In this document: in pieces, positions 10,951-57,400 of the stretch | Numbering within the stretch: position 1 is the stretch's first letter | How the letters are laid out: every line of letters begins with the position of its first letter | Assembly: GCA_951406725.2 (NCBI GenBank) | Contig: OX597836.1 | Coordinates: 24,614,001-24,678,000 of the forward strand | Source: Octopus vulgaris | Taxonomy: Eukaryota | Reading direction: 5' to 3' | Length of the DNA stretch: 64,000 nucleotides | The notes under the pieces: generated by a model | Told to the model about the DNA's origin: nothing | The model's database searches: none | The model's input: only the letters and a program-made list of their open reading frames with translations | Translations under genes and position numbers: made by a program

Positions 10951-11821
10951 ATGGAGAGAAATAAACAGATAGATAGATAGATAGATAGATAGATAGATAG
11001 ATAGATAGATAGATAGATAGAAAGATAGATAGAGAGAGAGAGAGAGAGGTAGGTAGGTATGTAAGTAAATAGATAGATAGATAGATAGATAGATAGATAG
11101 ATAGATAGATAGATAGATAGATAGATAGATAGATAGACAGACAGACAGACAGACGACGGACAGATAGACGGACAGACAGACGGACAGACAGACGAGCAGA
11201 CAGTCGGATGAACAGTCCGACAGACAGACAATACACCAATTGTGTGCTCTCGAGTAACGCATATATCAGTAATCCCATGGTAAATATTATTGACAGAAAA
11301 CAATGTTCAGTCGACAAGCAAAATGTCACCGAATTCTTTCGTCCGAAATAAAGAAAAGAAATTTAAAAAACAACTTTCTTCTGATTTAACCTTTCTCCCC
11401 ACCTCGCTCTCCCCCCTCCTCTCTCTCTCTCTCCCTACCCTTTCTACCGTACACACACACATACATACACAATATCTTATATATTTTATTTGTTTCAGTC
11501 ATTAGACTGCGGCCATGCTGGGGCACCGCCTTCAAGAACTTTAGTCAAATGAATCGACCCCAGGACTTAATTTTTTTAAGCTTGGTACTTATTCCATCAA
11601 TCTTGCAGAAACTACTAAGTTACGGAGACATAAACACACCAATACCGGTTGTCGATCGGAGATGGGTGAACAAACACAAATACAAAAACACATACATTAA
11701 GATATATATATATATATATATATATAGTTAATCCAAACAAGAAAACACAAAAAAACACAGCAACGCGAGGACGTGGAACAAATAAAGTATTATTGGACGC
11801 TCAGGAAAGATGGGAAGGAGG

Positions 11822-11856
11822 GTTTAACGTTTCGAGCGGAGCTCTTCGTCGGAAAC
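11822..11856 (-). ncRNA. Minimal hammerhead-like motif (U4C core variant) in a ~200-bp repeat (11727-11926) inserted in (TA)n
   Basis: Minus strand: GTTT-CCGACGA-A-GAGC-TCC-GCTC-GAAA-CG-TT-AAAC. Stem I GTTT/AAAC, stem II GAGC/GCTC, palindromic stem III AACGTT. Confidence 0.55.
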
Positions 11857-13139
11857 AAAGGAGAAGGAAAGATCCGAGAAGGGAAGACAGAGGAAAAAAA
11901 ATTGCTGGCGGTGCTCACGAGGTCACATATATATATATATATATATATATATATATATATATATATATATATATATATATATATATATCTTAGATGCAGC
12001 ACGAAGCTTGTCAGTGAACAGGTCGCGGTCTCAAAGCGATGAAAATATTTTGACAAATTAATTTAAATGTTGAAGTGAATCTAACGGTTTTGTGTGTTTC
12101 TTAAATGGCTTATAAACACCTTCCACGCTGCAATTGTTTTCGTTCCAGCACACGATCTCAGATCAAGTCACTCGCTATGCAAGTACATCTCAGTAATATA
12201 TATATGGCTGTGTTGTAAGAAGTTATCTTCCCAACCGCAGGGTTCCGGGTTCAGTTCCACTGCGTGGCATCTTGAGCAAGTGTCTCCTACTATAGGCTCG
12301 GGCCGACCAAAGTGAGTGGATTTGGTATGTATGTATGTATGTATGTATGTATGTATGTATGTATGTATGTATGTATGTATGTACAGGGTGCGTAAGATAT
12401 TTGAGGACAGATTTATGCTTAAAAAACCCAGATAATAACTATTTATCAAAAAATGCTATGATGATAAAAATAAACTTTCTTTTCTATAATGTTACTCAAT
12501 AAAGCCACCATGAGCTTCAACAACTGCTTCTATATGAGATCTAAATCATCTACATGATCAAATCAAGTCGTCCTGGTTTATTTTGGACATTACTCTGACT
12601 ATACCAGCTTTCAAAATGTGTATGTATGTACGTATGCATGTATGTATGTATGTATGTATGTATGTATGTATGTATGTATGTATGTATGTATGTATGTAGG
12701 TAGGTAGGTAGGTAGGTAGGTAGGTAGGTAAGTAGGTAAGTAAGACGCCCATCGGTCACTAATACTAGCTCCCATCAGCTCTATCAGTGGTACTCTATAC
12801 CACATGTAAGAGGTACCCTGTCCCATCGTTCAATAGTACCATATACCATTTCACATAGCCTTCGTCACCAGTGCTATTGTGTCCTCAGTAACTATCTACC
12901 ATTCTAGGGTCACCAGTGCTATGACACTAGGTACCATATCGTCCAGTGGTACTGTCGCCTACCATATACCATATCTCTCACCAATGCTACGCACCACTAC
13001 ACTCCATCTGTACCAGAACTAATTAACCATCGCTATCATCACCACCATCATCATCATAATCATCATTAGAGTCTTCTGCTTCACCATATTAATCATTTTT
13101 TTCTCTCCATATTCTTCTTCCTTATCTTCAACTTCTTTC

Positions 13140-13410
13140 CCACTATCACAACCACCACCACCATCACCACCACCACCACCACAACCACCACCACCACCAC
13201 CACCACCACCACCACCACCACCACCACCACCACCACCATCACAACCACCACCACCACCACAACCACAACCACCACCACCACAACCACCACCACCACCACC
13301 ACCACCACCACCACCACCACAACCACCACCACCACAACCACAACCACCACCACCACCACCACCTCCACCACCATCACCACCACCACCACCACCACCACCA
13401 CCACCACCAT
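13140..13410. repeat. (CCA)n trinucleotide tract followed by CAG/TAG/TTA tracts to ~13950
   Basis: Directly visible. Confidence 0.95.
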
Positions 13411-54162: not shown

Positions 54163-54377
54163 CAGTTTCCGTCTACCAAATCTACTCACGAGGCTTTGGT
54201 TGGCCCGAGGTTATAGCAGAAGACTTCTGCCCAAGGTGCTACGCAGTGGAACTAGACCTGGAACCTTGTGATTGGGAAGCAAGCCTCTTACCACACAGTC
54301 CTGTTTCAGTCCAATTGCGTGGCACCTTGGGCAAGTGCTTTCTGCTAACGAAACGACACACATTTTTTTCTGTGTCC

Positions 54378-54413
54378 TTTTCTGTAGAAGAGCGTAGGCT
54401 CGAAACGTAAAAG
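54378..54413 (+). ncRNA. Hammerhead-like motif with non-canonical core (A6U)
   Basis: TTTT-CTGTAGA-A-GAGC-GTAG-GCTC-GAAA-CG-TA-AAAG; same architecture as 11822-11856. Confidence 0.45.
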
Positions 54414-57400
54414 ACTTTTTCTATTCTTGAGTGTTATACTAATACATTCTGTTTGTTTTGTACACCACCTGTCTTCATCTATGTGGAGACGCAATGGCCC
54501 AGTGGTTAGGGTAGCGGACTCGCGGTCGTAGGATCGCGGTTTCGATTCCCAGACTGGGCGTTGTGAGTTGTTTATTGAGCGAGAACACGTAAAAGCTCCA
54601 CGAAGCTCGGCAGGGGGTGGTGATCCCTGCTGTACTATATATATATATATATATATATATATATATATATATATATATATATATATATATGTATTTATGT
54701 ATGTATGTGTGTGTATATGTTTGTGTGTCTGTGTTTGTCCCCCCAACATCACTTGGCAACCGATACTTGTGTGTTTACGTCCCCGTAACTAGCGGTTACC
54801 GATAGAGTCAGTACAAGGCTTACAAAGAATAAGTCTTGGGGTCGATTTGCTCGACTTGAGGCGGTGCTCAAGCATGGCCGCAGTCAAATGACTGAAACAA
54901 GCAAAAGAGTAAAAGAGTATATATATATATATGTGTGTGTGTGTGTGTGTGTGTGTGTGCTCTAAGCAGTAGCCAGCATGTCGAAAGATAGATTACATTA
55001 AATGTGTATTTAAAAACGTTTCAAAGAACGATAAGTACTGTTTTACTGATAACCTTCACTTTTTACAGCTATACACCCACCCAATAATCCACCTCCCCAA
55101 CAGTACCAGGGAGAACATACGCACACACACACACACACACGCGCACTTACACATACATTTAAACTACCTTTCTTATACCAATATGTTCGGTTCTTTTATA
55201 TATTCATTTTTGCTTGGCCTGTTTATTTAAAAATTGCATGCCTATGGAATTTGCCTTTATATCTTTGCATATCAGCGTGTATATATATATATATATATAT
55301 ATATACATGTGCATACACACATACATGTATACACACACACATATGTACATACATACACACACACATAAGGAGATGTGTGTTAAATCAATGGCAACATGGA
55401 AGAAACTATGTGACCAAGTTATCCGAATATACCATCAGCTACCAGAATGTTTATGTTAGCAGGGTACATGTTCCTTAGTTTTATAACAGCCTCACACATG
55501 CGCATACATACATCCATACATAATACATATATACATACTTACCTATATGCAAGCACACACACACATATACACACACACACACACACACACACACTAGTTC
55601 TTAGACTTTTACATGACTGATTCGTACTTTGCATATACATAGAAATATAGAAACAAACATATTAATGCAAGTGTGTATATATATATATATACAGAGAGAG
55701 AGAGAGAGAGAGAGATGTGTGTGTGTGTGTGTGTATGCGGCAATAGTTTTTCGTATCACCGTGCTGTTAAAAGCACGATTACGTTGAAGTTTTCTCTTTC
55801 TCAGCAAGATTTTGTCTGTCACGTTTTCTGATGACTTCCGTATAGTTTGTTTTAATTTGTTGAAAATGATGAAAGCCCCCAAAACCCTGTCCCAATGTCC
55901 GCCATTAATCTCATGGAATTAGTGTTGCCTACTACAAAATGGCAGGAACCCACGCCAACACCAACGTCTTCAGTCTGAATCTGTTTCTGTGAAGGTCTGG
56001 AAACGTTGATGGTGGAATATAGAATGTTTCTTCTCCACACAAACTACAAAGAACTTATCAGAGAATATGTGAGAAAACGCGCGCACACACACACACACAC
56101 ACACACACACACAACTGATTCGATTGTGAGGGATAAGCAATTTTGATATCTTCTCGCACGTTAATTAAACTAAGAGTTCTCTCAAGATATGAAATCGTAA
56201 GTAACGAAATGCTGACAGCTGGACCATAGCGAATGTGTGTGTGTGTGTGTGTGTGTGTGTGTGTGTGTGTGTGTGTGTGTGTGTGTGTGTGAGAGAGAGT
56301 GTGAGTGTGTGTGTGTGTTGACAGATAGAAAATGACTCAGTGTTGTTTTCTTCATCCCCCGAATGTATTGTTCTGATTCGTTGTTTTGAACATCTGATTT
56401 ATATTATTATGTTGCCCTCTACTGTATTCCTCATGCTATGGTTGATAGGGATTTTGGTGTAAATTTATGGTTCGTGTGAATCCGAGAACCGTATTTTATG
56501 AAGCGGTAATAATCGGGAGATTCCTGTCCTTCAAAATGTTGCTATCTGTGTGTCCTAAAAACTAAGATGATGCAGAGGTTGTAGGATTGAAAGAAATATT
56601 GGTTTGAATTTTTGGCTCAAGGCCAGCGGGGCGGGTGGAATGAGTCGGTTATACCTAACCCAGCGTTTCACAGGTACTTATTTTATAGACATCGGAAGGA
56701 TGAAAGGCAAAGTCGACCTCGGCGGAATCTGAACTCAGAACGTCAAGGCGGACGAAATGCCGCTAGGCATTTTGCCCGGCACGGTAACGATTCTGCCAAT
56801 TCCCTGCCTTAACGGAAAAAAAATATTGTTTTCTATTAAAAGCACAAGGCCTGAAATTTTGTGGGAGGGAACAAGTTGATTGCATCGACCCCAGTTCTCG
56901 ATTGGTACTTATTTTATTGACCCTGAAAGGATGAAAGGCTAAGTCGGCCTCAGCGGAATTTGAACTCAGAACTTGAAGTCAACGAAATGCCTCTGAACTT
57001 CTAGCCGAGTGTGCCAACGATTCTGCTAGCTCGCCGCCTTAATTGAAAGAGATTTTAACAATATTTAATAAGCCACAAATGGTTCTATAAAAGCAATAAT
57101 GGGCCGATTTTATGCTATCGCTGAGTCAAAAGTATTTCCTCTTCTTCTTCTTCTTCTTCTTTCTTCTTCTTATTATTATTATTATTATTATTATTATTAT
57201 TATTATTATTATTATTATTATTATTATTATTATTATGATTATTATTCAAAACACTTGGTTTTCGTAAAATACAAAGACAAGTACTGTTTCTTGAATTAGT
57301 TTTTGACTAAAACTGGCAATGGCCCGTGGTCCCGACCCGCTATATTTTGAGCTCAAATGCCGCGCCGAAGTCAATTTTCTTTTATTCTTTCAAGGTCGTG

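Follow-up and report, generated by a model that had tools for sequence, protein, structure and literature searches.

The stretch of Octopus vulgaris DNA analyzed here (assembly GCA_951406725.2, contig OX597836.1, positions 24,614,001 to 24,678,000; 64,000 nucleotides, hereafter the window, in whose positions coordinates are given) contains six hammerhead ribozyme motifs, and the repeat families that carry them were named A to F after the motifs at 11822, 16944, 23632, 17384, 15261 and 54378, respectively (Table 1). Our data strongly support that five of these hammerheads belong to the 3′ ends of Penelope-like elements (PLEs) that encode proteins, and that the sixth, in family B, lies in a protein-less tandem unit that is likely copied in trans by a PLE protein. 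A first-pass annotation had taken all six inserts for non-coding elements mobilized in trans. That description fits 16944 alone, a tandem unit without an open reading frame (ORF) and with a PLE-like insertion signature, and it fails for the other five, which extend upstream into reverse transcriptase (RT) and endonuclease (EN) frames.

Table 1. Hammerhead-bearing repeats of the window and the PLE pieces that accompany them.
Feature	Position	Strand	Hammerhead motif	Remarks
Family A, Neptune-type PLE 3′ end with minimal hammerhead	11727..11926	(-)	core CCGACGA from 11852, plus extra A; predicted cleavage 11826	(TA)n on both sides
Family E, inverted arm bearing the 15261 motif	15225..15298	(-)	core CTGATGA, 15294-15288	stem III mutated in this copy
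Family E, long arm, Hydra-type PLE 3′ end	15304..15449	(+)	decayed hammerhead	head-to-head with 15225..15298
Family B, inverted pieces	16328..16594	(-)		short 3′ end at the leftmost piece, followed by (TA)n
Family B, partial upstream unit	16587..16825	(+)		unit positions 242-468, 93%; adjoins the full unit in tandem
Family B, full ORF-less unit	16826..17267	(+)	core CTGATGA from 16950, stem II ~60 nt; predicted cleavage 17036	468 bp in other copies, with ~32 bp lost at this site; long 3′ end followed by (TA)n
Family D, 3′ end of young Neptune-type PLE	17332..17537	(-)	core TTGAAAA (U3-A8) from 17418; predicted cleavage 17387	(TA)n on both sides
3′ tail of young Hydra-type relative of family E	17567..17640	(-)	none	96-97% to L387/L388
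Family C, Hydra-type PLE 3′ end	23463..23746	(-)	core CTGAAGA from 23738; predicted cleavage 23634	~90-nt stem II region; TA-rich on both sides
Family F, Neptune-type pLTR piece	54364..54480	(+)	core CTGTAGA (U at position 6) from 54382; predicted cleavage 54409	lacks its final ~30 nt; no (TA)n at site
Family A, second stub	60816..60952	(-)	core deleted	

All six cores that had been proposed were present, and stem III was palindromic in five of them. A descriptor that predated any knowledge of the families found three palindromic hammerheads in the window and none in 25 block shuffles. A relaxed descriptor, which was tuned post hoc on the window motifs and misses the mutated 15261 copy, gave five matches; 200 shuffles averaged 0.1 and never reached five. 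In a position sample of the genome (60 pieces of 30 contigs, each 10 kb long and placed at round coordinates; 600 kb in total) the relaxed descriptor matched 33 motifs, seven of them within one array, compared to 0–3 in 20 shuffles. Motif frequency was thus well above that of shuffled sequence in both window and sample, a comparison that the first-pass annotation had named as a possible refutation. The inserts at 11822, 16944, 17384 and 23632 were confirmed to be TA-rich on both sides. At 15261 and 54378, one or both flanks consist of other repeats. An Rfam scan of the window returned no hammerhead among the best 150 of 415 matches, a list dominated by microsatellite matches, and no hammerhead reached the Rfam gathering score in seven loci examined. 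Further CTGANGA...GAAA strings, at 6750, 12888, 38696, 42108, 49844, 55828, 62964 and 63248, failed the relaxed descriptor and were rejected; the strings at 12888, 49844, 63248 and in the 16250 region had no match in the loci retrieved from the genome.

Comparison with copies elsewhere in the genome revealed that every insert belongs to a repeat family, as had been supposed, and that by their sequence A, C, D, E and F are 5′-truncated 3′ ends (pseudo-long terminal repeats, pLTRs) of protein-coding PLEs, three of Neptune type (A, D and F) and two of Hydra type (C and E). Parents with RT plus a GIY-YIG EN at the C terminus were found at L228, L387, L081, L199-L202 and L205/L206, and the minimal hammerhead is located within the pLTR of the parents of all five families. 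The pLTRs occur as direct repeats in L228, L387 and L388, and inverted copies are present in L081, L082 and L205. The 3′ ends of the families are fixed and adjoin (TA)n, with (TA) within 12 nt of the end in 28/29 copies of A, 25/25 of C, 20/20 of D and 16 of the 18 scorable among 20 copies of F, and their 5′ ends are variable. Among the five parents an unbroken frame (726 aa) was present only in a relative of E, the others being broken or truncated. Pfam searches of six parent frames recognized RVT_1 in three (E 2.8e-7 to 1.7e-5) and a weak GIY-YIG domain in two, and did not recognize the Hydra-type fragments. The claim that the inserts are short and ORF-less holds within the window, where tblastn with six, then nine, PLE peptides of the same genome gave a best E of 0.43 and the stated lack of a PLE RT or GIY-YIG ORF was borne out, but not genome-wide for these five families. 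The search for such ORFs in extended copies, also proposed in the first pass, succeeded for all of them and found none for B in the 58 loci covered.

Longer copies of family A run with continuous homology through a CA-rich 3′ untranslated region (UTR) into EN and RT frames (L199-L203), and the window copy is 94.7% identical to the end of L200; as to pLTR arrangement, the copies observed in this family were tandem/inverted stubs only. In family D the Neptune-type EN frame ends ~700 nt upstream in L124 and L125, and the window copy matches L206 at 100% over 214 nt. A family F copy, L228, reads as pLTR, RT-EN frame with a frameshift, pLTR and then (TA)n. A and F are sister families, so that the view of the inserts as mostly unrelated fails for 11822 and 54378. 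A CX2-5CxxC linker, read by eye, precedes the EN in the A, D and F parents. A further young Neptune family, with 150/150 matches listed at 99–100% identity and many 811-aa frames, carries a U3-A8 hammerhead in its 3′ UTR. An alternative long 3′ end was observed in 6/20 D copies and 17/29 Neptune copies, C, D and E being the families covered for this optional PLE tail. At L204:1938-4370 a 495-aa upstream frame of a young Neptune-type PLE overlaps the start of its 811-aa frame. The family F lineage, abundant with 12 matches in the 600-kb sample, includes the position-6 U variants CTGTAGA, CTGTTGA, CTGTGGA and CTGTCGA.

In family C, the parent at L081 is full-length but broken; it has its own 3′ end repeated in inverted orientation as well as Hydra-clade motifs, and L082 is similar. 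Sequence upstream of family E reaches a Hydra-type EN end; the hammerhead lies 1.1–1.45 kb downstream of EN in 10 of the 20 best EN matches, and the long arm of the window copy is 77.7% identical to the pLTR of L387. By eye, DKT, the CxCX5C linker, and CxxC and CxH around E and N are present in the C and E parents, the second C of the linker being altered in several copies. The Hydra-type length of <3 kb does not apply to these elements, given a 3.4-kb tandem unit and the long 3′ UTR of family C. L387:925-8176 holds two intact 726-aa Hydra-type elements in tandem, 99.6% identical, and dozens of EN ends with equal scores were found across the genome. The hammerhead-less tail in Table 1 was absent from the first-pass list. 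Many family E loci (L140-L158, L010) are tight hairpins with an inversion point at most ~25 nt upstream of stem I, copies that the query favored, and in L010 the fold-back lengthens stem I itself by ~45 bp. A possible Hydra-type EN remnant lies ~5.5 kb before the window (L087:4264-4567; phmmer E about 1e-3 against nine peptides).

Family B differs from these in having no coding parent among 58 loci (25+3+30), in none of which a PLE frame was continuous with the unit, the few matches being separate neighbors. Its units have a GC content of 0.34–0.37, and every tandem unit contains a type I hammerhead of minimal type with a long stem II, a 12-nt palindrome as stem III and no Rfam match at gathering score. 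Before the 468-bp unit stands the terminal part of another one, and full dimers occur at some loci. A sister unit, B2, is 491 bp long, ~71% identical to B in aligned columns and yielded 203 exact motif matches; its arrays lie between (TA)n runs and have up to 14 direct and 3 inverted units, and the longest stop-free frame in a B2 dimer is 70 aa. The stem III pattern of this superfamily gave 3463 matches compared to 67 for its reversed control, and family B copies were found on at least 10 chromosomes among the matches listed. In eight distinct B-type sequences, both partners had changed in 8 of 28 pairs, and such double changes occurred in each of stems I, II and III; none of 500 shuffles scored as high and slid controls were near zero. 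Pairing is in this way conserved in B; the first pass had asked for such a test of stem covariation in the inserts generally. Cleavage only as a dimer is plausible for stem III palindromes of 4–6 nt, and a structure prediction for the sister unit indicates that, with the 12-nt palindrome of B, a monomer could fold a stem III of 4 bp. Separately, an unrelated ORF-less tandem family with a 359-bp unit was encountered in the position sample (L277:2097-4768, G000:C1, 20.0 Mb), with five direct and two inverted hammerheads, a 6-bp stem I and TA-rich ends.

B insertions consist of head-to-head arms whose 3′ ends fall into two classes, short (+125 to +141 from the cleavage site) and long (+221 to +245). 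A short end was paired with a long one in 24 of 28 two-armed insertions, counted by eye where both ends were in view and with single-armed or unresolved insertions excluded, and in 9/10 of a position-ordered subset; the exceptions among the 28 were L039, L050, L232 and L358. This short-arm/long-arm signature is that of PLEs, and suggests that a PLE protein likely moves B in trans. The 5′ ends of the arms were scattered over the unit, with no pile-up at the cleavage site bar a few single copies. Units within arrays were 99.4–100% identical, and in two arrays they shared variants in blocks. Folded as circles, B units were predicted to be more stable than shuffles (z -4.3 to -6.3). Contigs of four runs presumed to be RNA covered B2 in 4/4 and its head-to-tail joint in 3/4, these contigs covering B and B2 but being silent on strand, ends, level and circularity. 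No RNA record carrying family B was listed.

The colinearity of five families with coding parents, the fixed 3′ ends in (TA)n, the tandem and inverted geometry and the conserved pairing of B were observed. Beyond these, we propose that a PLE EN would cut AT-rich DNA and prime reverse transcription, as we infer from one Poseidon element studied in vitro (Frangieh et al. 2024). Priming on an RNA longer than one unit, at one or the other of two internal sites, would give head-to-head arms, one with a short and one with a long 3′ end, and an early stop of reverse transcription would leave short stubs. The PLE protein would act in cis for A, C, D, E and F, and probably in trans for B. The template may be mostly uncleaved multimeric RNA, in which case insertion would not depend on self-cleavage; the scattered 5′ ends, the arrays that run through intact hammerheads and the spread of family F with U at position 6 all fit the cleavage-independent insertion observed in vitro. 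The ribozyme would trim tandem transcripts, as a dimer where the palindrome is short and possibly as a monomer in B, and single stubs such as those in the window would be dead copies, predicted to be unable to cleave alone. On balance we favor, with some reserve, that the B superfamily is a cephalopod retrozyme still active today, on which PLE protein primes two fixed internal sites and reads through the intact hammerheads of multimeric RNA, producing palindromic arrays, a short arm facing a long one, of up to 17 units.

Other explanations account for parts of these data. Cores off consensus in three of the six motifs, and a relaxed descriptor tuned on those motifs, would suit chance matches in AT-rich repeats, but the core deviations equal published PLE variants, the motifs sit in pLTRs, and the count in independent stretches of the sample together with the covariation of B rules that reading out; we consider its likelihood negligible. 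The first-pass proposal that all six are independent non-coding retrozymes draws on inserts that are each short, ORF-less in the window and multi-copy, and it holds for B. The other five families, however, form 5′-truncation series that run upstream into RT/EN frames, which refutes the proposal for them, barring short sub-families with a 5′ end of their own, and makes it very improbable for the six together. For B, the arrays might have arisen from a circular monomer, cut and ligated by its hammerhead and then reverse-transcribed in rolling-circle fashion, still with the PLE protein, as in the model of Cervera and de la Pena 2020. The near-identity of array units, the joint in the presumed-RNA contigs, the predicted circular folding and the conserved hammerhead pairing all agree with a circle, although DNA arrays hold the same joint and the runs are contigs presumed to be RNA. 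Variants shared in blocks are unexpected from a single circle and favor a multimeric template, unless assembly error or later conversion mimicked them, and we regard the circle as a possible but rather doubtful origin. The same blocks would also suit a minisatellite origin of B, in which a PLE pLTR gave rise to the repeat and unequal crossing-over multiplied it locally, with no movement as RNA; a 2026 preprint proposes this route. Yet the copies are dispersed over the chromosomes, their ends fall at two fixed positions next to (TA)n, and short arms are paired with long ones, and we find this origin improbable; local expansion may still add units after insertion.

Several points weigh against the account that we favor. 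Locus extension and tblastn turned up no parental coding element for B, whose best similarity to any coding element (E 0.44) is not significant. The covariation comes from eight related sequences and few events, and the partial B unit of the window begins at about the cleavage site, a position consistent with cleavage of the template. In the 2026 preprint, only one of nine retrozyme dimers was seen to cleave. Among the coding families, the window copy of E is only ~78% like its coding relative, and the names Neptune and Hydra were assigned by motifs rather than by a tree. The hammerheads of A and F are no better conserved than the remainder of the sequence (5.6 vs 7.0% and 6.5 vs 6.7%), which is expected of dead copies, though it is no proof of function. 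Finally, loci were chosen by similarity to the insert, which biases them towards young copies.

The following comparisons refer to parts of the cited papers. Metazoan PLE pLTRs carry minimal type I hammerheads (Cervera and de la Pena 2014, PMC4209133), and those in octopus resemble them in the extra base between positions 9 and 10.1, the U3-A8 variant, a palindromic stem III and a short stem I, and in being mostly single motifs of truncated PLEs, with opposite-strand pairs 100–700 bp apart. They differ in number (4,000–9,000 in coelacanth and Xenopus compared to ~1e5 extrapolated here, with another descriptor) and in the U at position 6 of family F. A U4C core variant is known from a viroid, and a change at position 6 lowered activity in another ribozyme. 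With the Neptune and Hydra clades of Craig et al. 2021 (PMC8557442), the octopus parents share the C-terminal GIY-YIG domain, the CX2-5CxxC linker in A, D and F, the DKT, RWK, CxCX5C, CxxC and CxH motifs in C and E, and inverted 5′-truncated copies with a tail at one end and (TA)n targets. Hydra elements are typically (as a tendency) <3 kb, unlike the 3.4-kb tandem unit here and the ~2.5 kb between EN and hammerhead in C.

Animal non-LTR retrozymes (Cervera and de la Pena 2020, PMC7229834; Li, Clavereau, Pollet 2026, bioRxiv 10.64898/2026.07.22.740005) are, like B, ORF-less tandem units of low GC with a type I hammerhead each, occurring as dimers to multimers, with a PLE as proposed partner. 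B differs from them in its minimal-type hammerhead, long stem II and 468–492-bp units, although minimal motifs are admitted among retrozymes by Li, Clavereau, Pollet 2026, and in its tail of ~85–105 nt compared to 30–40. The evidence for a PLE partner is insertion geometry in B, compared to co-occurrence or pLTR trees in the retrozyme papers. Poseidon_Ac (Frangieh et al. 2024, PMC11167929) likewise produces a tail in vitro from two internal RT start sites at AT-rich targets, and hammerhead cleavage was not needed for its insertion. It belongs to another clade and another host, and was assayed in vitro, while the octopus elements are known from sequence alone.

The density of motifs in the window is not exceptional. 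The position sample held 3.5 motifs per 64 kb, or about 1e5 when extended to the whole genome of 2.8 Gb, and against this density five in the window are ordinary (P=0.28), so that a hammerhead hotspot was rejected. The dense radiation claimed in the first pass thus stands for the genome, with its multi-copy families and ~1e5 motifs, and not as a peculiarity of the window. First-look candidates (A 1879, B 1041, C 1423, D 1394, E 1965 and F 1944) are totals that do not equal copy numbers. The best 40 candidates were 97–100% identical in family A and ~100% in family D, and family C candidates were at 96–100%. In the 600-kb sample, blast matches numbered 12 for A, 12 for F and 5 (at three loci) for E, with none for B, C and D.

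The window itself is ordinary in repeat content. Family B, family D and the Hydra tail are stacked in one (TA)n run at 16328-17640, and like nesting was observed in L057, L174, L188 and L273. A ~420-bp repeat resembling a short interspersed nuclear element, at 24437-24856 and 15 other places in the window, is also frequent in all loci. Broken long interspersed nuclear element (LINE) frames lie at 8860-10884 (-), with an RVT_1 match at E 1e-6. A 146-aa frame at 6564-7004 (+) had no Pfam match; judging by a characteristic motif, it resembles the end of an R4/Dong-type LINE that carries the restriction-like endonuclease.

Hammerheads in pLTRs, Neptune and Hydra structure, (TA)n targeting, animal retrozymes and their PLE origin are already published. 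In octopus, PLEs were annotated as 6.83% of the sequence in 190 families, and the portions of that annotation's text and supplement considered here make no mention of ribozyme, hammerhead or retrozyme; a giant-squid paper counts 235 Rfam hammerheads. Searches of the literature on octopus and cephalopod hammerheads and retrozymes found no report of these families, although Repbase, Dfam and the PMC13282606 Zenodo library may catalogue them. With the kinds of element published and no report of a cephalopod retrozyme found in those searches, the octopus families appear to be new, but the system is not. What is added is the scale in this genome and the insertion signature of family B. The retrozyme papers, in the parts cited, leave open what element mobilizes animal retrozymes and whether the template is circular. 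The very young retrozyme arrays, the intact young PLE coders and the PLE-like insertion signature in one genome make the question of the mover testable, and the wide spread of a hammerhead lineage carrying U at position 6 is relevant to the question of whether cleavage has any importance. If our reading is true, B insertions would be direct genomic evidence of animal retrozymes as parasites of PLEs.

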